From the IMG/VR virus record IMGVR_UViG_3300030376_005178: 56,789 nucleotides of DNA. One strand, 5' to 3'. The DNA is from an uncultured virus (IMG/VR IMGVR_UViG_3300030376_005178). Lineage: Duplodnaviria; Heunggongvirae; Uroviricota; Caudoviricetes. The notes below the pieces were generated by a model. It made no database searches. It saw nothing but the letters and a program-made list of their open reading frames with translations, and had not been told where the DNA came from. Below, one piece after another: positions 2,060-52,039 of this stretch. The translations under genes were made by a program, and so were the position numbers. How positions within the stretch are numbered: position 1 is the stretch's first letter; the number at the start of each line of letters is the position of its first letter.

Positions 2060-2097
2060 TATTTAGTCATGGATAAATACTTCGTTACTGATAAATA
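2060..2097. promoter_or_regulatory. Divergent T4-like late promoters (TAAATA on - at 2060-2065; ATAAATA on + at 2073-2079 and 2091-2097)
   Basis: Matches to the gp55-type late promoter core between divergent genes. Confidence 0.55.
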
Positions 2098-2098
2098 C

Positions 2099-2356
2099 AT
2101 GGACTTACAGAAGATAGCATCAACTGGCACAGCAGTAGCAGTCGTAGGGACTGGTGCGTTCATGGGTGGTGGTCATGTCATTGATCAACAAACTGGTGGT
2201 CCACAAAAAAGAGAAGATGCCCAAATAGAAAAGATTAGACAGGTTGTTAGAGAAGAGATATACATTCAATTAGTTGAGAATTGGCCAAAGAGTTCTGGTC
2301 CTGTTAAGGGAATCCAAACACCTAAAGAAAACTATAAGAATCAGATCCCTAAATAG
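2099..2356 (+). CDS. Small cyanophage protein with N-terminal hydrophobic segment
   Basis: MDLQKIASTGTAVAVVGTGAFMGGG. Start moved from 2069 to 2099 because the late promoter motifs lie inside the longer ORF. Confidence 0.6.
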   Translation: MDLQKIASTGTAVAVVGTGAFMGGGHVIDQQTGGPQKREDAQIEKIRQVVREEIYIQLVENWPKSSGPVKGIQTPKENYKNQIPK

Positions 2357-2375: not shown

Positions 2376-3173
2376 ATGACAAGTTTGATCGATCCCAAGG
2401 AGTACTCAGACGCAGTTGGCCTTTTGAGGTCATTTTTTTTGTCTAAAAACTTTTTGGAAGTTCATACTCAAAATAGACTGAGTATCCTTGCTGCTTGTGA
2501 AGATCCTACAACAGTAGCAACATACAATTATGGTGGTAATATTTGGCCACTACCACAGACAGGTCAGATGTGGTTAGAACATGAATTACTTTCCAACCCT
2601 TCAGCAGAAGGGTTTTTCTGTGTCTCAACATCATACAGGGCAGAAGAGAATCCTGTTCCAGGTAGACATGAGACTATCTTCCCTATGTTTGAATTTGAAA
2701 TGAAGGGAGGTGTTGAAGAGTTAAAAGAAATGGAGATTGAATTATGTCAATGGTTAGGAATACCATTGGATTCATCTGCTATACAAACATATGATAAATG
2801 GGCTAAGGATTATGATACTAAGGAATTAGATCATGATCATGAAACAGCAATTGCTCGTGGTATGATTACTGACTTCCCTGAGTGGACATCACCATTCTGG
2901 AACATGGCACGAAATGATGATGGTACTAGTAAAAAGATTGATGTTATCTTAGGTGGCATGGAAACTATCGGTAGTGCTGAAAGGAGTACCGACAAGGAAC
3001 AAATGCGTAATACATTCTACACCATATCAGATGGTGGATATGCTCAACTTATTATTGATAAGTTTGGTAAGGAAAGAGTAGAAGCAGAACTTGAGAAATT
3101 CCTCGAATTCGACTTCTTCCCTCGTTCTGGAGGAGGAATCGGGATTACTCGTCTCATCTCGGCACTCAAGTAG
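2376..3173 (+). CDS. Class IIb aminoacyl-tRNA synthetase catalytic-core protein (AsnRS-like, no anticodon-binding domain)
   Basis: Motif 1 (FFLSKNFLEVHT), AsnRS-like LPQTGQMWLE, motif 2 (SYRAEENPVPGRHETIFPMFEFE), ETIGSAERS and motif 3 (PRSGGGIGITRL). Only 265 aa, with no N-terminal OB fold. Confidence 0.8.
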   Translation: MTSLIDPKEYSDAVGLLRSFFLSKNFLEVHTQNRLSILAACEDPTTVATYNYGGNIWPLPQTGQMWLEHELLSNPSAEGFFCVSTSYRAEENPVPGRHETIFPMFEFEMKGGVEELKEMEIELCQWLGIPLDSSAIQTYDKWAKDYDTKELDHDHETAIARGMITDFPEWTSPFWNMARNDDGTSKKIDVILGGMETIGSAERSTDKEQMRNTFYTISDGGYAQLIIDKFGKERVEAELEKFLEFDFFPRSGGGIGITRLISALK

Positions 3174-3182
3174 TGCCTACCT

Positions 3183-3267
3183 TGTGAGGTGGCGAAACGG
3201 TAAACGCTCTAGTCTGTTTAACTAGTGTTCCTGGCGGGACTTGTAGGTTCGACTCCTACCCTCACAG
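3183..3267 (+). tRNA. tRNA-Asn(GTT), atypical, with long variable arm; CCA not encoded
   Basis: Acceptor TGTGAGG/CCTCACA plus G73; D-arm GCG-AAACGGTAAA-CGC; anticodon stem CTAGT/ACTAG with loop CT-GTT-TA (anticodon 3216-3218); V-arm GTTCC-TGGC-GGGAC; T-arm GTAGG-TTCGACT-CCTAC. Confidence 0.9.
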
Positions 3268-3285
3268 TAAATAACTATATATGGT

Positions 3286-4212
3286 ATGGATCCAATAAAT
3301 GACATACCACTAGTTAATAACTCGGATTCTGGCATACCCTTCATTGGGGTAAATGGTACAGGCATCCAACTTATTCAAACAATAAAACCACCTAATAGTG
3401 TTGTTAAACCTATTGGTGTTACAAGAATTGCAAATCAGAGAATTTGGTTAAATGATGTACCACAATCTCTACCACCAACAGTTCCTGTTACTGAAATTAT
3501 AGGAACTCCTATAGTTAATATGCCTGGTTGTGTCAAGGTACACAAGGAGAACGCAAAGAATCCAAAAAATAAAAATAAGATGTTGGTCGATGACGACCCT
3601 AAAGGAAATACAGTATTATGTGACGCTGGTGCTCCATACTATGAACCACCTGACTATGATTATAGAGATCTAACTTGGCAAACTATTACTCAGGAACAAC
3701 CAGAAGCAGGTGGAGTAGATACTGGAACACCACCTGCCCCTGATCTAGACACTCCAGAACCGCCTCCAACTGGAGGCAATACAGCAGAGGATATAGAATG
3801 TCCTCCACTCAATGCAAGACGCATAGGAGACCTAAATCAAGCAGGTACAGAGAAGGTTAAAGAATATAAACTAACACCTGACGGTAAGATTTGTGAGACT
3901 ATCTGGGAACCAGTCCCATTTGTAGAGCAATATCTACCAACGATGGGTACTGTAACAACTACTGCATCTATTGCTGCGGTAGCGACGACATCTGCCCTAC
4001 TTGCCAAACCCCTAGCTGATCTGCTCCTGAAGGTAGTGAAGCCTGTGGTGAAGAAAGTGATTGCGAAGATTCAGAAGATTCTTGGGAAGACCCCGTACCG
4101 TCCAACTCAATCTGAACTTCAGACGAATCAGTATCGAGAGAAGAAGGGGATGCTGCCTCTGAAGTTTGGTCCGAAGAAGAAGGAGAAGAAGAAGAAGGAC
4201 GAGTCCAAGTAG
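3286..4212 (+). CDS. Proline-rich cyanophage protein with C-terminal hydrophobic/amphipathic helix and Lys-rich tail
   Basis: 308 aa ORF; TAAATA at 3268; TTTASIAAVATTSALLAKPLADLLLKVVKPVVKK segment. Confidence 0.7.
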   Translation: MDPINDIPLVNNSDSGIPFIGVNGTGIQLIQTIKPPNSVVKPIGVTRIANQRIWLNDVPQSLPPTVPVTEIIGTPIVNMPGCVKVHKENAKNPKNKNKMLVDDDPKGNTVLCDAGAPYYEPPDYDYRDLTWQTITQEQPEAGGVDTGTPPAPDLDTPEPPPTGGNTAEDIECPPLNARRIGDLNQAGTEKVKEYKLTPDGKICETIWEPVPFVEQYLPTMGTVTTTASIAAVATTSALLAKPLADLLLKVVKPVVKKVIAKIQKILGKTPYRPTQSELQTNQYREKKGMLPLKFGPKKKEKKKKDESK

Positions 4213-4999
4213 GTTGTGGTATCTGATGCTCATGAGGAAGTATCTTACCACCAGGAGATGTTACTACAACATCAGCACATATACTATGATACGGCGATGC
4301 AGGGTGGAAAAATATTCCAGCTTTTTTTAACTCACCACAATTTTTTAGTCTTGCGATTTCAAAATCCAATCTCTTATTAGATGTCAACTGTAATTGATGT
4401 GCTGTCTGTGCCTCTGCTGCCTCCTTACATCTCCTCTGCATACCTCTGTTTAATGGTATTGAAAGCGTAGCAGAGAGTCCTAGGTTGAAACTCTGGTTCG
4501 CTCTCATATCTGTTCTAACTGGTTTATACCATGTAGGTGTCATAGTACTACCACCATTAAGTACATCAGGTACTCCATCACCAGTTGGTACATCTACTTC
4601 TATTTGTATATCCTCTCCATCTGGGAACCATCTAGTTCCATCTGCCTTAGTGCGATTATCATACCAGTCTTCCCAAGGATAGTTCTTAACAGTAACAGTC
4701 TGTTTAACAGTCGTACCCTCTACATCTGTTAGGTTATATTGTGGTTCGTTATAAAAATCTTCCCAAGGATCCTTCCTTGAATCTGCAAATTGAATATATG
4801 GTGTCATATTCATAGTCGTACCCTGACATGACACCCCACCACCGTAGGTGTTAGTTACATATGGACCTTGTAAAACCTGTATAGCTTGATTGGTTACCGA
4901 GCCCGAACTATTAGCGATTGGATTGGCAGTGGCACTAACTCCACCTACACCTTCTGCTCTTAATGGTAAAGATTGAACGCTGAGAAGCGTTGCTATCAC
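3968..4999 (-). CDS. Secreted/outer-membrane-type cyanophage protein (signal peptide; NLGLSATLSIPL followed by a helical region)
   Basis: Likely GTG start at 4999 overlapping the upstream TGA (GTGA) gives VIATLLSVQSLPLRA-EG, a signal-peptide-like N-terminus. The track's 5305 start overlaps the upstream gene. Confidence 0.65.
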   Translation of the reverse strand: MIATLLSVQSLPLRAEGVGGVSATANPIANSSGSVTNQAIQVLQGPYVTNTYGGGVSCQGTTMNMTPYIQFADSRKDPWEDFYNEPQYNLTDVEGTTVKQTVTVKNYPWEDWYDNRTKADGTRWFPDGEDIQIEVDVPTGDGVPDVLNGGSTMTPTWYKPVRTDMRANQSFNLGLSATLSIPLNRGMQRRCKEAAEAQTAHQLQLTSNKRLDFEIARLKNCGELKKAGIFFHPASPYHSICADVVVTSPGGKILPHEHQIPQPTWTRPSSSSPSSSDQTSEAASPSSLDTDSSEVQIELDGTGSSQESSESSQSLSSPQASLPSGADQLGVWQVGQMSSLPQQ

Positions 5000-5466
5000 T
5001 GGGTAAATGTACTTGTAGTATCTGTGACGCTTTGGATCTGGGTGACTCTTTGTATGAGAGTTTGGTTGGTCATCCCTGGTCCTTGATAACTCTGGGTAAA
5101 TTGAAATGCTGCCCCAGCTTCGTGTAATGTAAAATTGTTTTGTGCTGACATGTCTAAGGCATCGAACGAAGAAGTTACGCTTCCCGTTATTGCACCTTCT
5201 CCCGTTCCCACTCCTGGAGTTAATGTCACTGTTGATGTTGATGTTGGTGGGTTTAAAGCCGCTCCGTTGTTGTCGATGCCTACCCCAGTTACTGAGTATT
5301 CCCATCCTGTCCTATAATCAATGGAATTAATAGTTTCCGTTACCGTAGATTCAGTCTCGGTGTGGCTCGTCATCGAGCCCTGTTGAAAGTTGGGGACCAC
5401 TGGAACTGCTCTTGCAGAACCAGCACCACCTAATAACAATGCTACTATAGTTATAAGTCTTTTCAT
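4996..5466 (-). CDS. Secreted Thr/Ser-rich cyanophage protein
   Basis: Sec signal peptide MKRLITIVALLLGGAGSARA; VPVVPNF start of the mature region. Confidence 0.75.
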   Translation of the reverse strand: MKRLITIVALLLGGAGSARAVPVVPNFQQGSMTSHTETESTVTETINSIDYRTGWEYSVTGVGIDNNGAALNPPTSTSTVTLTPGVGTGEGAITGSVTSSFDALDMSAQNNFTLHEAGAAFQFTQSYQGPGMTNQTLIQRVTQIQSVTDTTSTFTQ

Positions 5467-21046: not shown

Positions 21047-21675
21047 TGTCTAAGCACTATTTTAGAAATTTGCCAAATATTCAATACAAAAATCCCCTAG
21101 ATTCTAGTGTTACTAGAAAAAATGGAGTTATTGTAAAAAATATGTTTTTAAGAGCAAAACTTAAAGATGCAATATATTCCGACTTAACTTTCCTACAAAG
21201 TTATACAATCAAAGAAGGAATGAGACCTGATACTGTTGCTGAAGAAATTTATGGAAATTCAGAATTAGATTGGATTATATTAATGACTGCAAATATTATC
21301 AATGTTAGAAGCGAATGGCCAATGGATAGTAAAGTATTATATGATTACTGTGAACGCAAATATGGTACAAACTTAAATGCTACTCAATTCTACGAAACTA
21401 CAGAAGTAAGAGATAACCAAGGTAGATTAATTCTTCCTGCTCAATTAAGAGTAGACTCTAATTTCACCATCCCTGATCCAGATACACACAACATAACACT
21501 AAATCCTGTTATAGGTATTAGTAATTACTTAGTAGAAACAAGAGAAAATGAGAAAAAAAGGAATATTAAAATTATGAGAGAAGAATATATGACAATGTTT
21601 ATGATGGATATGAAAGATACTCTTGAGTATAGTAAATCTTCACAGACTGTTAATAAGAGATTAAAATCTACCTAA
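21046..21675 (+). CDS. gp53: Baseplate wedge subunit gp53
   Basis: YFRNLPNIQY, RPDTVAEEIYGNSELDWIILMTANI...WP motifs. Confidence 0.9.
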   Translation: MSKHYFRNLPNIQYKNPLDSSVTRKNGVIVKNMFLRAKLKDAIYSDLTFLQSYTIKEGMRPDTVAEEIYGNSELDWIILMTANIINVRSEWPMDSKVLYDYCERKYGTNLNATQFYETTEVRDNQGRLILPAQLRVDSNFTIPDPDTHNITLNPVIGISNYLVETRENEKKRNIKIMREEYMTMFMMDMKDTLEYSKSSQTVNKRLKST

Positions 21676-22228
21676 GTTTAGGTCCACTTGCCCAACCAAC
21701 TAAAACTAACCTCTCACCTTTGGTGACAGGTTCTGCTCTATGTGGACATCTAGAATCAAAAACTATACTATTACCTTTACCTTTAGGTAATTCACAATGC
21801 TTATTGCAGTAATCAACAATAATTAAGCCACCATCCTCATAATCCTCTGGATCAGATAGTTGAACACTCAAACTCAATTTTCTCCAGACTTTTTTATTTG
21901 GAGCAATACCATAATCACAGTGCCAATCAAAGTTACCACCTACTCCATATCTAAGAATTTGAAATTCATATAACTCTATATCAAACTCATATTTTTTATT
22001 AATAGTGTCAAATATACTACGACCTATAGATGATACAACACTATTTGATTGAGGACAATGAATATCACACAATCTAAAATCTTTTTGATCTAGATAATCA
22101 GTTTGATGGGTTTGCCAAGAATCCTCTGGCACACCAGAAAGATAAGTATCTATTTCTTTAATTGCATTATCACTCAGCGAAAGAACATAAAAAGGTTCTT
22201 CACGGGAATAATTAAATTCTTCACTCAT
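21668..22228 (-). CDS. 2OG-Fe(II) oxygenase (PKHD/P4H-like)
   Basis: FDWHCD, RKLSLSVQLSDPEDYEDG and HRAEPVTKGERLVLVGW motifs. Confidence 0.85.
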   Translation of the reverse strand: MSEEFNYSREEPFYVLSLSDNAIKEIDTYLSGVPEDSWQTHQTDYLDQKDFRLCDIHCPQSNSVVSSIGRSIFDTINKKYEFDIELYEFQILRYGVGGNFDWHCDYGIAPNKKVWRKLSLSVQLSDPEDYEDGGLIIVDYCNKHCELPKGKGNSIVFDSRCPHRAEPVTKGERLVLVGWASGPKLR

Positions 22229-22830: not shown

Positions 22831-23379
22831 TTATAGATCAACTTCACTCAATCCCATAGATCCAGTATACCATCCTGTAGCAATATACTTATCACTCATA
22901 GGAGGATTACCTCTATGTACATGAGTATAAGAACCTGGCCAAATTACCACAGTTCCTTTTGTTGGTTTAATTTTATATTTCTGATATAAAAACTCAGTTT
23001 CTCCACCTTCAGCGACATCATTTAAATATACCATCCATGCCATAATTCTTGTTGAAGTTACCCAACCAGTATTCTCGCTATGAAAATGATGATAACCTTT
23101 AGTAGGTTCAGTCTTTTGAAGTAGAGTAAGTGAACTTATAAATCTTTGTTGCTGAAGATAAACATATTCTTCAGAATATTCTTTAAGACATTCGTTAACA
23201 TATCCATTTAATGCTTGTGCCTCACCTGGAGAGAAAGCATCCATACATATCTGTTTATCATTGACAAAATTAAATTTTCGAGGGATCACATGAGGTGACC
23301 TCTCGATAAAATCAATAATCCAATCACAAAGATTGGAGTCTACGAATTTCTCGTAAACTCCAATAAAGTCATGATACAT
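22831..23379 (-). CDS. 2OG-Fe(II) oxygenase
   Basis: YHHFHSE, WMVYLNDVAEGGETEF and HVHRGNPP motifs. Confidence 0.85.
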   Translation of the reverse strand: MYHDFIGVYEKFVDSNLCDWIIDFIERSPHVIPRKFNFVNDKQICMDAFSPGEAQALNGYVNECLKEYSEEYVYLQQQRFISSLTLLQKTEPTKGYHHFHSENTGWVTSTRIMAWMVYLNDVAEGGETEFLYQKYKIKPTKGTVVIWPGSYTHVHRGNPPMSDKYIATGWYTGSMGLSEVDL

Positions 23380-24664: not shown

Positions 24665-25165
24665 TTATACCATAGTTGCGACTAAAATCACCCTTCGGTT
24701 ATCCGCAGGAGTCTTCATATAATGCTCACCAGTAAATAGGATAATATCATCCTCTTTAGGATCATACTCTTCACCTTCTACAAAAGTAGATCCACCAGCA
24801 TCAGTAAAATACATCAATAAATTTCCATGATTAAATTGATGATCCACATGAGGTAAAGAAGACACAACTTCCTTCTCTGGATGAACAGCATTAACAGATA
24901 TTCTAATAAAACTATTCATTACTACATCATTATACTTAAGGATCTCCATTAACATTTTAACTACACCCTCAGTCTCTTGAGGATTATCAATTTTAGGATA
25001 TCCTTCAGTCTCTGGTCTTTTTATAAAAGCATGAGTATAAAAGGGCAAATCAACAGTAGAATTTGTCGTTTTTACATTATAATTCCAAGTAAAATCAGGT
25101 CCAGTAACCCAATTTTTAAATCCCAGATAATCTTTAGTTTTTGGATTTTTTAAAACTTTTATCAT
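24665..25165 (-). CDS. 2OG-Fe(II) oxygenase-like protein
   Basis: PHVDH...YFTDAGGST...H...RRVILV jelly-roll pattern. Confidence 0.6.
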   Translation of the reverse strand: MIKVLKNPKTKDYLGFKNWVTGPDFTWNYNVKTTNSTVDLPFYTHAFIKRPETEGYPKIDNPQETEGVVKMLMEILKYNDVVMNSFIRISVNAVHPEKEVVSSLPHVDHQFNHGNLLMYFTDAGGSTFVEGEEYDPKEDDIILFTGEHYMKTPADNRRVILVATMV

Positions 25166-25752
25166 AGAAATTTAATATTAAAACTTGCACTAATCCTTTC
25201 ATGATCAGTTTCATTAGGTGATGTATTATGAAGAAGCACAGAAGGCCACAATGCTAACAAACCTTTCTCTAAAGGAAGAGATTGAGTAAAATCTGTTATT
25301 CTAGAAATTATATAGTTACCTGCAAATAATCTATAAGGACTTGAAAAAAATAAGTTTCCATCTTTACCATTTGTTTGTAAATAATAAACTCCAGATATAT
25401 CATAATTTCCATGATCATGCATATGGATATACTTACCTTTTGTTGTTCTTGTCAACCATGAATTATGAACTACATATTCTAATTTCTCTTTAGATCCTAT
25501 TTGCTCCAAATAGGTCATAATATTGATATGCAAAAAATCTAAGAACTGAGTACAATCTTTAAGTTGATGATCAGCAAAGAAAGCATTATCTTTTTCTAAA
25601 CTTAACTCATTAGTGTCATCAGTCCATTGAGGATTTTGAGCAAACTTTACTTTATCATATACACTGAAAAGTTCTTTGTCTATAGCTTCATGTTGTGATC
25701 CATTTACCTTATCAATATAGATTGGCATTGGAAACCATGATAAAGTAGGCAT
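25162..25752 (-). CDS. 2OG-Fe(II) oxygenase (TIGR02466-like)
   Basis: HDH..YDISGVYY...WPSVLLHNT.PN...RISASFN. Confidence 0.8.
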   Translation of the reverse strand: MPTLSWFPMPIYIDKVNGSQHEAIDKELFSVYDKVKFAQNPQWTDDTNELSLEKDNAFFADHQLKDCTQFLDFLHINIMTYLEQIGSKEKLEYVVHNSWLTRTTKGKYIHMHDHGNYDISGVYYLQTNGKDGNLFFSSPYRLFAGNYIISRITDFTQSLPLEKGLLALWPSVLLHNTSPNETDHERISASFNIKFL

Positions 25753-27710: not shown

Positions 27711-28403
27711 TTAGAGTGGCACTAAATTGTGCTCTTTCGTGTTTTCCGAGTTATCAGGATTACTAATCAGTATATCAAATCCGACAGTAATCCTAGGAGT
27801 ATCTAATAAATGAGTAGTAGAATCATGAACAACCCAACTGGGGAACATTGTCATTCTACCATCAATATTTTCACTAGTATATACATCATTATTAAATGGA
27901 TGATAATAGTTAGTAGTAGTGTCATATGACTGAACTACAAAATTACCACTCAAATAACAATATTCGTGGTGAGCATGACAATGCTTATTGATCAATTGAC
28001 CTTTACGCATTACATTTGCCCAACATCTAACTTTTAATTCAGGATGTTTACCATTAGATTTAAAAGCATTGTCTATAAACTCCTTATGAAATTCACGAAT
28101 TTTTTCATGCAATTTCTTACATACAGGATAGTCCCATTTTAGCACATTAAAATGGTTAAACCTAGAAGTTAAACAGTCTTTACCTAATCCAACAGCACCA
28201 CATGCATCAAGTTCATCTTGGGATGCATCTGCCCAATAATCTGGATATTTCCCCTTAATTATCTGCTCTTCCTTTAAAATTATGCTAGAAAGAGATTTTA
28301 CATCAATATCAAGATCTTTCTCAGCAATATAATACCCCCATGTGGGGGCAAAAGGTGTCTGAGGGGTTTCGCAGAAAATTGGTGTAACTTTCGTCATACC
28401 CAA
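27711..28403 (-). CDS. 2OG-Fe(II) oxygenase (TIGR02466-like)
   Basis: WANVMR...HCH...LSGNF...FPSWVVH...RITVGFD. Confidence 0.75.
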   Translation of the reverse strand: MGMTKVTPIFCETPQTPFAPTWGYYIAEKDLDIDVKSLSSIILKEEQIIKGKYPDYWADASQDELDACGAVGLGKDCLTSRFNHFNVLKWDYPVCKKLHEKIREFHKEFIDNAFKSNGKHPELKVRCWANVMRKGQLINKHCHAHHEYCYLSGNFVVQSYDTTTNYYHPFNNDVYTSENIDGRMTMFPSWVVHDSTTHLLDTPRITVGFDILISNPDNSENTKEHNLVPL

Positions 28404-30302: not shown

Positions 30303-30857
30303 TCAGAAACCGATTTTGTGATGAGGATTCGATTTGTGGTGCGGAACATCCCAAACAAAAGTAATCCTATCAACATCACCCACATTTTCTGCAGAATGAG
30401 GTATTTTATTATAAAACCAGAAGAATGTGCCAGGTTCTACGATCATTTCTTCGTCACCAACTCTATAACGATATTTTCCCTGTAATGATAGATGATACCT
30501 ATCTTTATTTTTATAATAATCTCCTCTATCAATATGCTCTAAAACTTTCCGACCTGGAGCTAATTTAAAAAATGCTGCTCTGCCAGTTTTCTTGATCTTA
30601 TACTTTTTCCAAAATTTATGAATTTCTGTGTAATGATCGTAAAGTCCAGTAGGTTCCTTACCACTATGTTCGTGAGGATCTATACCAGGAGGAACTTTTG
30701 CCCATACTAAAGGTAAAAATCCATAGGGGTTCTTTTTTCCACCCAAATTTTTTTGCCTAGAGACCCAATTCCAATGATCAGAATCCATCTGATCAAGAAA
30801 TGGTTTTGGGTCAATACCTGTTTTTATAATTCTTATATTTTCTTTATATGGATTCAT
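30303..30857 (-). CDS. Aspartyl/asparaginyl beta-hydroxylase-family 2OG-Fe(II) oxygenase
   Basis: HIDRGDYY...RYHLSLQG...FWFYNKIPHSAENVGDVDRITFVWD. Confidence 0.75.
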   Translation of the reverse strand: MNPYKENIRIIKTGIDPKPFLDQMDSDHWNWVSRQKNLGGKKNPYGFLPLVWAKVPPGIDPHEHSGKEPTGLYDHYTEIHKFWKKYKIKKTGRAAFFKLAPGRKVLEHIDRGDYYKNKDRYHLSLQGKYRYRVGDEEMIVEPGTFFWFYNKIPHSAENVGDVDRITFVWDVPHHKSNPHHKIGF

Positions 30858-31621
30858 CTGTAGTTAGCGTTGGGTTTGCCATCAGGAATACATTCTAATA
30901 CCTTTTCTCTTGGGAACCAACCCATCTCACGCAAGGCAGTAGTGTCAGCACATGTTTCATCTCTTTCACCTGGTGTACTCTCCTTAACTGGTAGATTAAA
31001 ATGACCAAATGCTTCTGCTAGATCTTTGACTGCTATAGTCTCACCTGTTCCCACATCTATGTGTCCAGTATATGTACTAGACATTAGGTAACAGATTGCT
31101 CTAGCAACATCCTTAACATGGATCCAATCCCTATAATGATTGGTAATGTATTTGGCATCTCCGTCCTGTAGCATCCTGAATAACATATCAGACCTACTAT
31201 TCTCACCATACACAGTCTGGAATCTCATCCCTACACTGTTAGGTGGTGCTTGTAGTTCATTAACCTTCTTGGTAATACCATAAGGATTCTGCCACCACTC
31301 CTCTACTTGTGCTGAACTAGCATAGAGTAGTCTGACATTATATCTCCTACAATAATCAAAGATAGGTTTAGACTTCTCGACATTATTCTCCCAGAATACA
31401 TCTGGATTGTCTACACTACCTCTGATGTTAGCAAATGCTGCGAGATGTATGACATAATCATATGGTTTCTCGAACATGCTGATCTCAGACTGAAAATCCC
31501 CGACATCATCGGGGAAATCCATACCATCAACTAGGTATCCGTAACCTGCCTCATGTCTAAGGTGATTGAAGACATAACTGCCTATGAATCCCTTATGACC
31601 AGTAACTAAGATTTTTGTCAT
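30854..31621 (-). CDS. NAD-dependent nucleotide-sugar epimerase/dehydratase
   Basis: ILVTGHKGFIG, HLAA, YASSA and PYGITK motifs. Confidence 0.85.
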   Translation of the reverse strand: MTKILVTGHKGFIGSYVFNHLRHEAGYGYLVDGMDFPDDVGDFQSEISMFEKPYDYVIHLAAFANIRGSVDNPDVFWENNVEKSKPIFDYCRRYNVRLLYASSAQVEEWWQNPYGITKKVNELQAPPNSVGMRFQTVYGENSRSDMLFRMLQDGDAKYITNHYRDWIHVKDVARAICYLMSSTYTGHIDVGTGETIAVKDLAEAFGHFNLPVKESTPGERDETCADTTALREMGWFPREKVLECIPDGKPNANYR

Positions 31622-35861: not shown

Positions 35862-36647
35862 ATGTATATTCTTACAGGAGCTGATGGTTTCATTGGGAAA
35901 CACTTCAAGAGTTCTCTTGATGGTGTAGTTGAATGTAATCTAGATAACTGTCTTACTTTCTTAGACAACTTTAAGAGTTGGGATAAGATTGATATGATCA
36001 TCCATCAAGGTGCGTTGTCCTCTACAACCAACAAGAACCTTGAGATGGTATACAAATATAATATAGACTTCAGCATTAAACTATTTGAGAAGGCAATAGA
36101 GTATGGTATCCCTGTTAAGTATGCCAGTTCAGCATCTGTCTACGGTAATCAACAAGGCATTATAAATCCCCTGAACTACTACGCATTATCTAAAGCAACA
36201 GTAGATTACTGGGTCTTAGATAATATAGAACGCTTTAGATATGTTCAGGGGTTTAGATACTTTAATGTATATGGATCAGGTGAGCATCATAAAGGAGCGA
36301 TGGCATCACTAGTCAGTCAGTTTACTTGGCAAGCAGCTACTGGTCAAATACATCCGTTTGAAGGCTCCGAGAAAATCCTTCGTGACTATGTGTGGGTTGG
36401 GGATCTGGTGAATGTAGTTTTATCAAACACTGCGGGTTCTGGCATATTCGATCTTGGCACAGGATCGCCAACAGCAATTGGCACTGTAGCTCAACTAGTT
36501 TCATCAAAAACGCAGTCGAAATTGTCTCCAATCCCATTTCCACCTCATCTTAAGGGTAAGTATCAATATTATACCATAGCAGATATGTCTTGGTTAAAAG
36601 ATTATAATTTCTTAACAGTTGAGGAATATATTAATCGCCAGGAATAA
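35862..36647 (+). CDS. hldD: ADP-L-glycero-D-manno-heptose 6-epimerase
   Basis: TGADGFIG, HQGALSSTT, YASSASVYG, PLNYYALSK and RYFNVYG.GE.HKG.MAS motifs. Confidence 0.85.
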   Translation: MYILTGADGFIGKHFKSSLDGVVECNLDNCLTFLDNFKSWDKIDMIIHQGALSSTTNKNLEMVYKYNIDFSIKLFEKAIEYGIPVKYASSASVYGNQQGIINPLNYYALSKATVDYWVLDNIERFRYVQGFRYFNVYGSGEHHKGAMASLVSQFTWQAATGQIHPFEGSEKILRDYVWVGDLVNVVLSNTAGSGIFDLGTGSPTAIGTVAQLVSSKTQSKLSPIPFPPHLKGKYQYYTIADMSWLKDYNFLTVEEYINRQE

Positions 36648-36987
36648 TCCTGTGCGAGTCCTCATCAAAATGTTCCGTAGAAAATTCAAATAATTCTGCA
36701 TCTTCTAGTGCAAGCATCTGATGTCTAGTTCCTCTACAACAATGGAAACTCTCACCAGGTTCTAATAATAAAGTCTTTGCAGAATCTCTATCATTATCCG
36801 AACTATAAAATAATTCTATTCTTCCTGATTGTAAGTAAAAGGTTTCATCCTTTAGGATATGATAGTGCCATGAACACCTGTGGTTCTTCTTAATAAACAG
36901 TAGCTTGCCACAGTACTCATCAGAGTTAGCAATCCACTTCTCATAACCCCATCCCTTGTTTACAAATTTAGGTTGTTTCTTTTTCAT
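36631..36987 (-). CDS. Cupin-fold sugar isomerase-like protein
   Basis: KGWGYEKWIAN...SWHYHILKDETFY...RHQM...EFSTEHF. Confidence 0.7.
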   Translation of the reverse strand: MKKKQPKFVNKGWGYEKWIANSDEYCGKLLFIKKNHRCSWHYHILKDETFYLQSGRIELFYSSDNDRDSAKTLLLEPGESFHCCRGTRHQMLALEDAELFEFSTEHFDEDSHRIIPGD

Positions 36988-37328
36988 TTAAAAAACTCAT
37001 AATCGTTCATGCCTTTATCATCAATAAAGAGATCGGCATGGGGTTTACCCATGATTAACTCATGATACTTAACACCCCACATTTTTAATTGTGCTTGAGT
37101 AAGAGGTCTCAACAAGTCCTCTGCTACTGCTGCTGCTTCTGCATGAGGTTTAGTTTTATTCCTACCCATTGCACGAGCAGTCATGTATATTATGTAGTGA
37201 CCCTCATCATATAGTTTATTAACTGCTTCTATCCTATCCTTCTTAGGAGTAGCACCTTCGTACTGGCATGTCCCACACCCCTCACCAGGTGTACAGATAG
37301 TACCATCTATATCAAAGCAGTATCTCAT
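36984..37328 (-). CDS. HAD-superfamily phosphatase (capsule-biosynthesis type)
   Basis: FDIDGTIC, MTAR and MGKPHADLFIDDK motifs. Confidence 0.75.
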   Translation of the reverse strand: MRYCFDIDGTICTPGEGCGTCQYEGATPKKDRIEAVNKLYDEGHYIIYMTARAMGRNKTKPHAEAAAVAEDLLRPLTQAQLKMWGVKYHELIMGKPHADLFIDDKGMNDYEFFK

Positions 37329-38481
37329 GTTCTGGTCCAAGGTAAAGGGTTTCAATAGGATTTATATCCATTGATTCAGTTAAGTGTCTCCAACAATGCA
37401 TTGCCATGCCAATAGAAATACCAGCATCACTAGAAATTGGTTCGACATATAGTTTAGCACCTTCTGGTAAATGTTTCAAGTACTCATAGTTTGCAACACA
37501 ATTTAAAGCACACCCACCAGTCAATACCACATTATTACTATGCTCTAATGCTTTCTTTATTAATGCTAACATATAATTTTCAAAATCTTTCTGACATCTC
37601 CATGCAAGGTTGCATAGATGTTGACACTTATCAAAATCAAAAGTCTCTTCATTCAATACTTTCATCCACTCACTTCTATCTGCAATATAATCATAAGGTA
37701 TTAATTCTATACCATGAATATTTCTTTTCCATAAAGACTCATCAACTCTACCATCAACAACAAAAGGTTTAATGTTAGGATCTTCTTTACCATATGTTGA
37801 CAGACCCATTAGCTTACCACACTCAAGAGTTCCAAACCCAAGAAATGCACTGACACCAGAGTATAACATACCAATACCACTAGTAGGATCCTTAATGGTG
37901 TGACTATCCATCAAAGTATGCCAAGGCACTGCTCCTTGAGATATCTTTTCAAATGTATGAGGATAAGATGCTTTGTAAATTGTTTCTACTTCATGACCAC
38001 ACCTTTCTATCCAAGCACCAGCACCATCAACAACTAAGACAGATGCTTCTTTGAATCCTGAATTATAAAAACCCAATGCTGCATGATATAAATGATGTTC
38101 CCCACTACACTCAGTAAATTCGGTCAAGTCTTCTCCAGGAGTAACCCATTGAGTAGTTACATGACCATTATCCCCAACAGAATATCTCTTTGATCTTTTC
38201 TTCTTTGATTTATTAGTTGCTTTAGCAATAACATCATTACATATTGCCATAAGAGCATCAGTTTCTTCAATTTTATCAGGGTAAATCAAAGATGAATGCA
38301 ATATCCAATCAACTGCTTCCTCCACATACTTACTGATAACTGTATAAGGTCTATGATCATGTTTACGACGAGTATTTCTCTCCTCTTCTAACATCCACTC
38401 TATCTTACCATCTTTAAGATAACATACAGAAGCATTATGTGAGGTATGATATGATAATATCTTAGGATTTGAGTATACCAT
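37312..38481 (-). CDS. Carbamoyltransferase (CmcH/NodU) N-terminal Kae1-like domain only
   Basis: HNASVC...EEERNTRRKHD, HHLYHA, VVDGAG, GKLMGLS, TGGCALNCVAN and DAGISIG motifs; ends before the C-terminal domain. Confidence 0.8.
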   Translation of the reverse strand: MVYSNPKILSYHTSHNASVCYLKDGKIEWMLEEERNTRRKHDHRPYTVISKYVEEAVDWILHSSLIYPDKIEETDALMAICNDVIAKATNKSKKKRSKRYSVGDNGHVTTQWVTPGEDLTEFTECSGEHHLYHAALGFYNSGFKEASVLVVDGAGAWIERCGHEVETIYKASYPHTFEKISQGAVPWHTLMDSHTIKDPTSGIGMLYSGVSAFLGFGTLECGKLMGLSTYGKEDPNIKPFVVDGRVDESLWKRNIHGIELIPYDYIADRSEWMKVLNEETFDFDKCQHLCNLAWRCQKDFENYMLALIKKALEHSNNVVLTGGCALNCVANYEYLKHLPEGAKLYVEPISSDAGISIGMAMHCWRHLTESMDINPIETLYLGPEHEILL

Positions 38482-39262: not shown

Positions 39263-39656
39263 TCCTATCGAAGAACTTTAATTCAGAAGACCAATACGAT
39301 CCAATGACCGACTTGTCTTTCCAATCAGAACCAACCACCATCACATCAGGTTTGATATCTTTTACCAATGCCTCAAGAGATTCATCACTATCAAAGTAAG
39401 TCACCTCATCAACTGCCTCAAGAGCAATCAACATCAGTCCTCTATCTTCCTGATTATATATTGGACGGGTTGGTCCTTTCTTTTCCCGTACTCTGTCGTC
39501 AGTATCGATACCAACTATAACATAGTTCCCTAAAGACTTAGCATAGTTTAGTAATGATATGTGACCTGGATGTAAGAGATCAAATGTACCATTGACAAAG
39601 ACTCTTACTGGTGCAAAGGGATGGATAAACCTTTTAGTCAAACTGGTTGACCCCAT
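39210..39656 (-). CDS. Heptose-1-phosphate adenylyltransferase (HldE/RfaE domain II)
   Basis: NGTFDLLHPGH, KGPTRPI and KPDVMVVGSDW motifs. Confidence 0.8.
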   Translation of the reverse strand: MGSTSLTKRFIHPFAPVRVFVNGTFDLLHPGHISLLNYAKSLGNYVIVGIDTDDRVREKKGPTRPIYNQEDRGLMLIALEAVDEVTYFDSDESLEALVKDIKPDVMVVGSDWKDKSVIGSYWSSELKFFDRIEKYATSKTVQCIIDRG

Positions 39657-41605
39657 TCCATCTCAGTGTCATTCTTTGCACCATCACTTTCTTCTGCACC
39701 CATAGTAGCATACTGTCTTAAACGCTTACCCTTCCTTGCTTCCAACTTTGCTGACGGTTTCCATTCATGTTCTTCTTCAACAGTAATCAACTTACCGTAC
39801 TCAGGAAGATACAAATACTTAACAGCACTACTATAGAGGGTACGAACCGCATCATCGAGTGTTTCAACCAGAGGTTCTCCACCCAGATTAAAGGAAGTAT
39901 TGAATATGATAGGGCAACCAGTCTGTTTAAAGAATTCTTGGATGATTTCATAATAGTTTTTGTTTTGTTCTGGTGTAACTGTTTGTATTCTACATGTACC
40001 GTCAACATGTATAATAGCAGGGATCTTTTCCTGAATACCTGGCTGACATTCAACAGCATACATCATGAATGGAGTCTCATCCATACCACGAAGATCAAAC
40101 CACTCATGCACATGTTCTTTTAGTATACTACCAGCAAAAGGACGGAAGAATTCTCTATGTTTCACACTGTTAACATGATCTCTACCATCAGGATCTCTAG
40201 GGTCATAAAGGAAAGAACGATTACCAAGTGCTCTTGGACCTGCCTCAGATCTACCTTGGAATAGTGCAACAATATTTTTCTCAGTTATAAGCTTAACAAC
40301 ATCTGCATGTGTTACATCTGTAATCTCTGCACCATACTTCTCACTAATCACATCAATTTCCTCCGCAGTGTAGTTGTATTCTGGACCAGTATAAAGATCT
40401 TTAATAGGTGGGTGTACAGTACGATCTTTATTAATTCTATGATGCCATAGTAATGCTGCTCCTAATGCAGTACCAGAATCATTGCTGACAGGTTCAACAT
40501 AAAGATTAATACCTTCACCTTTCAACTGTTCAAGATACCAGTAGTTTGCAACACAATTTAATGCATACCCACCACTCAATACTACATTCTTATTACCTGT
40601 CATTTTAACAGAGTTACGAATCAAGGTCAAGACTTGTTGTTGAGTTTCATTTTGAATCTTCCAAGCAGCATCCTTTCTATTTTGCAATTCATATAGATCT
40701 TTAGTATCATCATCACCTAAGTCCATAACCTCCTCAATCATATGTCTATTATAGATTGATCCATTAGGATAGAAAGGTGTAAAAGTATTTCTACAAGCAA
40801 TTTGCATCTGAGAGATACCATCATCAACAAAGAATGGTGGTAGATACTCAGGGTTCTTACCATAAGGAGCAAGACCCATTACTTTTCCTGCTTCTATAGC
40901 AGGGAATCCACAGTACTCCGTAATACCCTCATAGGTTTTAACAATACCAGCACTAGGAGTAGCATATAATTCATGATGATCATTCTCTTGAGACTCATAC
41001 CTCTCCACCATTCCATACCCATCCCAGAATCCAGAATCAAATCTATGATAGAAACAAACTGGAGTAGCAAACTTAGTTCCTATATGTTTATACTTTGTGT
41101 CAATAATATCAGGATAAGAACAATCAAATACAGTCTCGGTCTCCCAATAATCTTCAGTAAATTTTTCTATACTACCAAACTTACACCATGATCCTGCACC
41201 ATCAACAATAACTGCTGTTGCCGTCTCAAATCCTGAATTATAAAATGCACACGCAGCATGTAATCTATGATGAATATGACCCATATCTATAACACTATCT
41301 GGCCAAGTTCCAAACTCTGCAGTGTCTTCAAGCAAACCAATCTTTCGTGCAAGACCATAGTATTGATCATTACCACAGTAATCCATCCTGAAATTATGCT
41401 GACTCATCCTAGTAGTATGAGCAATGATAAAGTAATCAAGTTTATCTGTGTACTCTTTGATCTTTAAGATAGTTGCTAGTGGAGCACCATCATACTTAAC
41501 TCTGGTAAGTCTTTCTTCTTCTAAATTAAATACAACTTCACCATCTTTAAGAAGACAAACTCCACCGTTATGTCCTCTAGTAATAGCAGCAATCCATTGG
41601 GTCAT
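39638..41605 (-). CDS. O-carbamoyltransferase (CmcH/NodU/TobZ family), full length
   Basis: HNGG..EEERLTRVKYD, HHRLHA, GKVMGLAPYG, EAGPRALGNRS, REFFRPFA, HVDGTCRIQTV and NTSFN motifs. Confidence 0.9.
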   Translation of the reverse strand: MTQWIAAITRGHNGGVCLLKDGEVVFNLEEERLTRVKYDGAPLATILKIKEYTDKLDYFIIAHTTRMSQHNFRMDYCGNDQYYGLARKIGLLEDTAEFGTWPDSVIDMGHIHHRLHAACAFYNSGFETATAVIVDGAGSWCKFGSIEKFTEDYWETETVFDCSYPDIIDTKYKHIGTKFATPVCFYHRFDSGFWDGYGMVERYESQENDHHELYATPSAGIVKTYEGITEYCGFPAIEAGKVMGLAPYGKNPEYLPPFFVDDGISQMQIACRNTFTPFYPNGSIYNRHMIEEVMDLGDDDTKDLYELQNRKDAAWKIQNETQQQVLTLIRNSVKMTGNKNVVLSGGYALNCVANYWYLEQLKGEGINLYVEPVSNDSGTALGAALLWHHRINKDRTVHPPIKDLYTGPEYNYTAEEIDVISEKYGAEITDVTHADVVKLITEKNIVALFQGRSEAGPRALGNRSFLYDPRDPDGRDHVNSVKHREFFRPFAGSILKEHVHEWFDLRGMDETPFMMYAVECQPGIQEKIPAIIHVDGTCRIQTVTPEQNKNYYEIIQEFFKQTGCPIIFNTSFNLGGEPLVETLDDAVRTLYSSAVKYLYLPEYGKLITVEEEHEWKPSAKLEARKGKRLRQYATMGAEESDGAKNDTEMEWGQPV

Positions 41606-50670: not shown

Positions 50671-52039
<1,369 letters not shown>

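Follow-up and report, generated by a model that had tools for sequence, protein, structure and literature searches.

The enzyme-tRNA locus

The DNA considered here is a stretch of 56,789 nucleotides (nt) from an uncultured virus (IMG/VR record IMGVR_UViG_3300030376_005178), called the window below. It belongs to a T4-like cyanomyovirus whose nearest isolate is Prochlorococcus phage P-SSM7, and it carries baseplate and tail genes together with genes for a gp32-like single-stranded DNA-binding protein, PhoH, ThyX, psbA, and purN. Our subject is a pair of adjacent, co-oriented genes within the window (Table 1). The first encodes a protein of 265 amino acids (aa), here called X, which resembles the catalytic core of a class IIb asparaginyl-tRNA synthetase (AsnRS). 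The second, separated from the X stop codon (3173) by nine bases, is a tRNA gene whose first base lies at 3183. The only tRNA that ARAGORN detects anywhere in the window is Asn(GTT) at 3182..3268, and the Rfam tRNA model scores 52.8 bits (gathering score, 29) at 3183..3267. Covariation within the family agrees with both programs, bearing out a reading made earlier from the sequence alone (the original prediction), in which a GTT-anticodon tRNA with a long variable arm was placed 9 bp past the end of the enzyme gene.

Table 1. Features of the X-tRNA locus, with their positions in the window
Feature	Position	Strand	Remarks
95-aa open reading frame (ORF), PHROG 22018 (function unknown)	2069..2356	+	Upstream of the enzyme gene, co-oriented
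Gene of X, 265-aa AsnRS-like class IIb catalytic core; PHROG 29758	2376..3173	+	Without anticodon-binding domain
QTGQMWLE, residues 61-68 of X	2556..2579	+	Counterpart of AsnRS QSxQLYLE
Motif 2 region, residues 86-108 of X, SYRAE...GRHETIFPMFEFE	2631..2699	+	R88 and E90 conserved
ETIGSAER, residues 196-203 of X	2961..2984	+	R203 is the counterpart of Arg364 in P. horikoshii AsnRS
Motif 3, residues 247-259 of X, FPRSGGGIGITR	3114..3152	+	
85-nt tRNA	3183..3267	+	tRNA-Leu-like body, U1-A72, discriminator G73; CCA not encoded
Anticodon G34-U35-U36 and U37	3216..3219	+	U37 where a purine is usual
tRNA variable region, 17 nt	3226..3242	+	5-bp stem and 4-nt loop

Fold and family of the enzyme

X matches Pfam PF00152, the core of the class II D/K/N synthetases, over residues 12-264 (E=1e-14), and PHROG 29758, 'unknown function', with E=4e-165. 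Its scores lie far under every curated NCBIfam cut-off, including those for the aspartyl-tRNA synthetase of the non-discriminating type (ND-AspRS; 31.2 bits vs 353), the AsnRS equivalogs (TIGR00457 (asnS), 21.6 vs 342.6; NF003037, 23.6 vs 414), asparagine synthetase A (NF005055, 20.7 vs 389), and EpmA (TIGR00462, 16.5 vs 286.9; NF006828, 18.9 vs 264). No AsnA model is matched in either Pfam or NCBIfam. When a profile of the family is compared with the PDB, AsnRS comes first: 2XGT and 2XTI (Brugia), 1X54 (P. horikoshii), and 8TC7 (human) match at 9e-14 to 5e-10, with 2XGT the best at 9e-14. Archaeal AspRS is matched at 3.5e-12, and the archaeal-type asparagine synthetase AS-AR and EpmA at only ~2e-6. 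An AlphaFold (AF2) model built from 51 family members has a mean pLDDT (predicted local distance difference test) of 96.1; Foldseek places the catalytic domains of AspRS, AsnRS, and LysRS first among its structural neighbors.

Profile alignments pair QTGQMWLE of X with QSxQLYLE of AsnRS, FPMFEFE with the ExE end of motif 2, and ETIGSAER with GGSQRE; the three strings that had been singled out as AsnRS-type are indeed present and align with AsnRS motifs. The pocket residues shared with AsnRS are the Leu of QxxQxxLE, the Glu of ExE, and the Arg of GSxR. In these alignments Leu67 of X occupies the site of the aspartate-binding Lys of AspRS, and E106 is matched to P. horikoshii AsnRS Glu228, a position occupied by Asp in AspRS; E196 we take to be a metal ligand. 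The AsnRS-type residues L67, E106, R203, and E42 are conserved across all groups of X. Motifs 2 and 3 are intact, with R88, E90, R250, and R259 conserved. Motif 1, which had been listed with them, does not hold up: its signature proline is replaced by Gln32 throughout the family. The aligned residues show a predicted class II ATP site and an asparagine-type amino acid pocket to be kept in X.

The alignments of AsnRS and AspRS to X start at about residue 140 of those enzymes and cover their catalytic domains only. By these sequence-profile alignments, the N-terminal OB fold (the anticodon-binding domain) is absent from the 265 residues of X, as the original prediction had it. Thus, unlike AsnRS, X has neither an OB fold nor the motif 1 proline and scores far under the AsnRS cut-off; in addition, its orthologues coexist with canonical AsnRS and sit with pyrimidine genes (see below). 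Two other enzymes are reduced to a core in a similar way. AS-AR (PDB 3P8T), a class II core of ~290 aa that, like AsnA, stands alone and descends from Asp/AsnRS, acts as X may do on a small-molecule substrate, but it is a distant match only (2e-6); to our knowledge, neither AS-AR nor AsnA has a dedicated tRNA or a pyrimidine gene neighborhood. The class IIb paralogue EpmA (PoxA/GenX; PDB 3G1Z and 3A5Z) likewise consists of nothing but a core, that of LysRS, and has a non-translational task, the modification of elongation factor P; the pocket of X, however, is Asx-type and not Lys-type.

X is a member of a large, uncharacterized family of AsnRS-derived proteins that consist of the catalytic core only. 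At E <= 0.001, there are at least 8000 candidate clusters at 90% identity and 668 representatives at 50% identity, spread over marine phages, giant viruses, bacteria of the candidate phyla radiation (CPR), Rickettsiales, and Bacteroidota.

Pairing of the two genes in viruses

IMG/VR contains at least 594 relatives of X, and the counts for close loci refer to the best 80 of these. At 73 of the 80, ARAGORN finds a tRNA 10-22 nt downstream of X, and inspection adds one more (L074), giving 74/80; the six close loci without a tRNA have just 0-119 nt of downstream DNA. The pairing also holds in reverse. A scan with a pattern derived from the tRNA gave 80 loci, 25 of them chance matches that are not tRNAs and 55 tRNA-like. 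X lies upstream of every tRNA copy (45/45) that has at least 900 nt of upstream sequence, and the five tRNA-like loci without X have no more than 79 nt upstream.

A locus scan of viral contigs with a narrower alignment gave close relatives only. The distant viral set comprises 67 loci, after removal of 21 repeats of contigs already counted, and 53 of these have a downstream GUU tRNA (45 by ARAGORN and eight by covariance model), which lies at most 236 nt 3' of X except for one case at 880 nt. One of the 14 loci without a tRNA (L205) has only 210 nt of downstream sequence; the P0135 clade and three giant-virus bins account for part of the other 13. The pairing thus holds down to ~45-60% enzyme identity in many virus lineages.

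The huge phages LR756501 and LR756508, in which X is 47% identical, have no tRNA within 5 kb of the X gene. Candidates for a long-arm GUU tRNA elsewhere in these two genomes proved to be ordinary tRNA-Asn and tRNA-Leu genes only. LR756501 (L006/L087, 735 kb) contains five tRNA-Leu genes in tandem at ~194.4-194.9 kb and, among its many further clusters of tRNA genes, one that has three each for tRNA-Asn and tRNA-Asp.

Among isolated phages, X is found only in P-SSM7, P-SSM2, and P-SSM5. In their GenBank records the pair is annotated as 'tRNA ligase' and 'tRNA-Asn'. It follows gp23 in P-SSM7, where it lies beside three ordinary codon-supplement tRNAs, and it is near lipase and gp61 genes in P-SSM2 and P-SSM5; the window represents a third context. 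Co-inheritance of X and the GUU tRNA, which the original prediction had offered for checking, is therefore borne out by the close loci, by the reverse scan, and by three different genome contexts. Sullivan et al. (2010) list a 'tRNA ligase' (T4-GC 194) for two genomes, and the lengths given there, 741 and 798 bp, agree with those of the P-SSM2 and P-SSM7 genes. We found no description in the literature of the X-tRNA pair or of an AsnRS-like enzyme in pyrimidine synthesis.

The tRNA

The alignment of close tRNAs contains 52 copies, 51 of them distinct. In it, 99.9% of the cells in stems are paired, and compensatory changes are present at 18 of the 24 pairs; the fold is far above chance, with shuffles and slid registers nowhere near it. 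U1-A72 and G73 are found in all 51 distinct tRNAs, while the remainder of the acceptor stem covaries. The anticodon loops are CUGUUUA (21), UUGUUUC (15), CUGUUUC (9), and CCGUUUA (6). Because of these four loop types, G34-U35-U36-U37 can be called fixed, and position 33 may be C.

The body of the tRNA is Leu-like. By blastn it matches a huge-phage tRNA-Leu(CAA) with 77% identity, and the covariance model of the family gives the huge-phage tRNA-Leu genes 52.7-63.6 bits and one ordinary tRNA-Asn 46.5 bits. Only the body is Leu-like, however, since the tRNA has a GUU anticodon and, as its discriminator, G73 rather than A73. With canonical tRNA-Asn it shares the cloverleaf, the GUU anticodon, G73, and U1-A72, and two of the four ordinary tRNA-Asn genes of the huge phages likewise have U1-A72 and G73. 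Unlike canonical tRNA-Asn, it has the Leu-like body, an expanded variable region (an arm of 17 nt vs a loop of 4-5 nt), U37 in place of a purine, a position 33 that varies among relatives, and a constant tie to X.

The shared features coincide with a published identity set. In the literature, bacterial Asn identity consists of the three anticodon bases and G73, ND-AspRS reads the same set by means of its anticodon-binding domain, and GatCAB requires U1-A72. The literature also lists G73 as an antideterminant against LeuRS and, for yeast tRNA-Asn, t6A37 (N6-threonylcarbamoyladenosine) as an antideterminant against AspRS. A tRNA with U37 cannot carry t6A37.

The distant viral tRNAs are 77-108 nt long, some are without a variable stem, and CCA is often encoded. 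Position 33 can be U, C, or A and position 37 U, G, or A, while GUU and G73 are kept, as is U1-A72 with two exceptions. Thus, the viral tRNAs preserve the marks for Asn, ND-AspRS, and GatCAB and relax U33, the purine at 37, and the variable region, as befits an RNA that enzymes of the host still have to load but for which weak decoding is tolerable. The original prediction had suggested instead a charging enzyme that is blind to the anticodon and recognizes the shape of the tRNA. Shape recognition is difficult to uphold for tRNAs that differ this much in length and may or may not have the arm, and anticodon-blind charging for tRNAs whose kept features, G34-U35-U36, G73, and U1-A72, are those read by ND-AspRS/AsnRS and GatCAB. 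Judged from the aligned tRNAs, the pattern of conservation agrees neither with a core-only enzyme as the recognizing partner nor with a fixed 'shape' as the thing recognized.

Contigs assembled from marine RNA libraries, which derive from relatives 85-95% identical, connect the tRNA with the 3' end of X; carry-over of DNA is possible.

X outside phages and its pyrimidine gene neighbors

A scan of one genome per prokaryotic species yields 402 relatives of X, the best 80 of which are 53-81% identical. Among these 80 cellular loci, 74 are without the odd tRNA and six, the six most phage-like, have it. The tRNA-less loci belong to Saccharibacteria and other CPR bacteria, Rickettsiales/Midichloriaceae, Aureispira/Saprospiraceae, Moheibacter, and a Pasteurellaceae metagenome-assembled genome (MAG), and many of them are on contigs of 0.3-1.5 Mb. 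NCBI names two homologues from cultured species 'amino acid--tRNA ligase-related protein' and 'asparagine synthetase A' (Phocoenobacter). Five of the six tRNA-bearing loci are on contigs of 2.4-28 kb and one (L313) is on a 335-kb contig; some of these contigs are probably viral DNA binned with cells. The six (L264, L265, L266, L267, L268, and L313) combine a phage-like X (66-81% identity) with the odd tRNA in MAG bins assigned to Poseidoniia, Bacteroidetes, Legionellales, Flavobacteriaceae, and Neomarinimicrobiota.

In bacteria and giant viruses, X orthologues at 55-63% identity have no such tRNA and adjoin pyrD, pyrE, or pyrF. A Pfam search of 135 ORFs neighboring X at 16 cellular loci detects pyrimidine-type genes within 4.5 kb at seven of the 16, and tblastn detects pyr neighbors at 21 of the 80 cellular loci. 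Among the seven loci found by Pfam are operons with the order X-pyrD-pyrE-pyrF (in L290 and L335) and X-pyrF-pyrE-pyrD-prs. In a giant-virus bin (L256:2501-5627), X is followed after 16 nt by a 758-aa ORF that matches PyrE, PyrF, and PyrD in turn, and there is no tRNA. A 3.6-kb contig of a 'Bacteroidetes' bin (L265:1279-2965) has a pyrD-like ORF, X, and the odd tRNA, the sole locus seen at which all three are adjacent.

The link extends to phages. At four cyanophage-type loci, a bona fide pyrE (141-146 bits vs a cut-off of 106.8) lies ~1 kb or less from the X-tRNA pair, and pyrE is present elsewhere in the genomes of P-SSM7 and P-SSM2. Homologues of pyrE occur in 13 of 50,697 phage records; every one of the six records that belong to P-SSM7, P-SSM2, and P-SSM5 is among the 13, and no isolated phage without the X-tRNA pair carries pyrE. 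Short ORFs of 127-142 aa near X at five loci (L181, L187, L199, L200, and L201) are not counted as pyrE, since no NCBIfam model matched them. They resemble phosphoribosyltransferase-like ORFs of Rickettsiales X operons (tblastn, 1e-14 to 1e-20) and, on that likeness, may represent a diverged phosphoribosyltransferase that travels with X. A neighborhood unlike the pyrD/E/F one is seen on an 831-kb Patescibacteria contig (L321:3008-6834), where genes for a phosphoribosyltransferase, an amidohydrolase, and a fumarate-lyase-family protein precede X on the same strand.

Pathway genes were compared between five X-bearing cellular genomes and 14 controls, counting matches over the curated cut-off. 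The genes for the first steps of pyrimidine synthesis are sparse in the X-bearing genomes: pyrB is found in 0/5 (controls, 14/14), pyrC_multi in 0/5 (11/14), pyrC_dimer in 0/5 (1/14), and carB in 1/5 (14/14). Because these are MAGs of unstated completeness, the absences are provisional. Genes for asparagine and its tRNA are better represented, with asnS in 2/5 (6/14), gatB in the other 3/5, those without asnS (12/14), asnB in 3/5 (7/14), and asnA in 1/5 (2/14). Since either asnS or gatB is present, X is dispensable as an AsnRS in all five genomes, and since AsnB or AsnA is present in four of the five, it would be redundant there as an asparagine synthetase. The free asparagine synthetase that the original prediction had named as its alternative is weakened by the latter result.

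Do the tRNA-linked and tRNA-less enzymes differ? Viral sequences with the tRNA (38) and without it (11) were compared with 27 cellular ones: 76 positions are conserved in all three groups, and no position that is at least 85% conserved in the tRNA-linked group differs in the cellular group. The tRNA-linked proteins are the most acidic (mean net charge, -18.8 vs -11.5 for the cellular ones). In a midpoint-rooted FastTree of the 76 sequences, which was used for this purpose only, the groups interleave; a quick tree of 51 sequences is star-like. The simplest reading is that tRNA-linked and tRNA-less X would have one shared chemistry.

Possible functions of the pair

Because relatives of X sit with pyrimidine genes and the tRNA keeps the marks for loading by the host, we tentatively favor the reading that X makes a pyrimidine precursor and is supplied by a carrier tRNA that the host charges with Asx, although we would not be surprised to see it fail. 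X would adenylate an Asx-type substrate, leading to dihydroorotate or a direct precursor of it; the simplest chemistry would be Asn + CO2 + ATP to dihydroorotate. The phage would then raise its pyrimidine supply through X together with its own PyrE. The adjacent RNA would be a dedicated tRNA-Asn-like carrier and not a private tRNA for translation. Host ND-AspRS would load it, GatCAB would amidate the product, and the tRNA would hand its bound Asp or Asn over to X wherever the host forms most of its asparagine on tRNA. A stricter form, in which ring synthesis itself is tRNA-dependent and X closes host-made, tRNA-bound Asn with CO2 and ATP to give dihydroorotate, appears rather improbable.

Aminoacyl-tRNAs with roles outside translation are known: Glu-tRNA in haem synthesis, tRNA-Gly isoacceptors in cell-wall bridges, and the action of GluQRS on tRNA-Asp. 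In such cases the aminoacyl-tRNA is the carrier or substrate of a metabolic or modifying enzyme, and is sometimes a poorly decoding isoacceptor. We know of none that involves an AsnRS-like core, a phage cassette, or pyrimidine genes.

Several points weigh against a pyrimidine enzyme with a carrier tRNA. Gene neighborhoods are the source both for the supposed product of X and for its supposed contact with the tRNA. An activation of the alpha-carboxyl of Asn, as in the aminoacyl-tRNA synthetases, has no obvious use in making dihydroorotate. The tRNA-less orthologues manage without a carrier, which is hard to square with a tRNA that acts as a carrier only. No pyr gene is found in the fetched stretch of 59/80 cellular and 157/174 viral loci, nor does the window itself have a pyr match in its 56.8 kb. 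The pathway comparison covers only five MAGs, one of which (G005) has carB and a sub-threshold PyrC-like match. The RNA-library contigs miss some parts, reveal neither strand nor transcript ends, and are no proof of transcription. Finally, the reading presumes that Prochlorococcus, as the host, has no AsnRS and depends on ND-AspRS/GatCAB.

If X replaces the first three steps of pyrimidine synthesis, it would give a textbook pathway a new starting point, and calls of 'pyrimidine auxotrophy' in reduced genomes would change. If the tRNA is the carrier of the X substrate, it would be a rare example of a metabolism-dedicated tRNA, packaged with its enzyme by viruses.

The co-evolved private pair of the original prediction survives in part, in that the two genes are co-inherited; orthogonal charging by an anticodon-blind, shape-recognizing enzyme is not borne out. 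In its present form this explanation would have X charge the tRNA with Asn by way of the acceptor end (U1-A72, G73), leaving the anticodon unread, and the tRNA decode AAY codons of an AT-rich phage, sidestepping host GatCAB. If true, it would be a minimal synthetase/tRNA pair of natural origin and, as such, worth the attention of genetic-code engineers. The AsnRS-type pocket with motifs 2 and 3 intact, the strict two-way co-occurrence at a spacing of 10-22 nt in the cyanophage group, the constancy of U1-A72 and G73 in an acceptor stem whose other pairs covary, the conserved GUU anticodon, and the three codon-supplement tRNAs next to the pair in P-SSM7 all argue for it. Nevertheless, we consider it unlikely, since the 55-63% orthologues lie in pyr operons without a tRNA, in genomes that have AsnRS or GatB, and since no residue is specific to the tRNA-linked enzymes, whose mean charge is strongly negative. 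Furthermore, decoding should suffer from U37, which all tRNAs of the cyanophage group have, and from the C33 or A33 of several clades, and if decoding is relaxed, a core-only enzyme gives no reason for the upkeep of GUU.

A carrier tRNA also has to be weighed against the possibility, unlikely in our view, that the two genes have unlinked functions. X would then be a small-molecule enzyme, for a pyrimidine precursor or for asparagine in the manner of AsnA/AS-AR, and the tRNA a codon supplement, a tRNA-Asn of tRNA-Leu ancestry that is merely a fellow passenger of X on the same mobile cassette. The tRNA-less orthologues evidently work alone, the cassette changes its genome context, and one homologue is called an asparagine synthetase A by NCBI. 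In addition, tRNA genes co-occur with non-syntenic regions, according to Sullivan et al. (2010). It is doubtful, though, that mere hitch-hiking would preserve the pairing to ~45-60% enzyme identity across many virus lineages, place the tRNA with X in every testable copy, or hold the identity marks fixed in a tRNA whose loop strays from the norms of translation. The plain asparagine synthetase version suffers further from the AsnB or AsnA of four of the five cellular genomes, the low asparagine synthetase A score, and the want of any AsnA match.

It is very improbable that the tRNA is mainly a cis-acting, tRNA-like element, either an RNase P/Z processing or stabilizing signal for the 3' end of X mRNA or a sensor that regulates X: its position directly 3' of the X stop codon on the same strand and, weakly given the possible DNA carry-over, the RNA-library contigs would suit such a role, but a processing signal needs no invariant GUU, G73, or U1-A72, and other clades have the tRNA much farther downstream, with an encoded CCA.

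Other features of the window

The 95-aa ORF ends 19 nt before the start of the X gene, and the two may form one transcription unit. The original prediction had placed X and the tRNA behind late-promoter motifs. This claim fails: with up to one mismatch, TATAAATA occurs 138 times in the window vs 142 expected by chance, and it is absent from the 270 nt directly upstream of the X gene. The two TATAAATA-like sites nearest to the gene (2072 and 2090) fall within the upstream ORF.

Downstream of the tRNA, two convergent ORFs at 3286-4212 (+; phrog_570, 5e-83) and 3968-5305 (-; phrog_848, 8e-116) overlap by ~245 nt; probably a start or end is mis-set in one of them. Elsewhere, two Nol/NodU-like carbamoyltransferase genes (37315-38481 and 39641-41605, both on the minus strand) cluster with genes for two nucleotide-sugar epimerases (30857-31621 and 35862-36644), a phosphoheptose-isomerase-like protein (36987-37355), and a cysteine-dioxygenase-like protein (36634-36987), in what looks like a glycan-modification island. 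Five paralogues of a 2-oxoglutarate (2OG)-Fe(II) oxygenase lie within 30 kb, all on the minus strand (21671-22228, 22834-23379, 25165-25752, 27714-28403, and 50673-51251).

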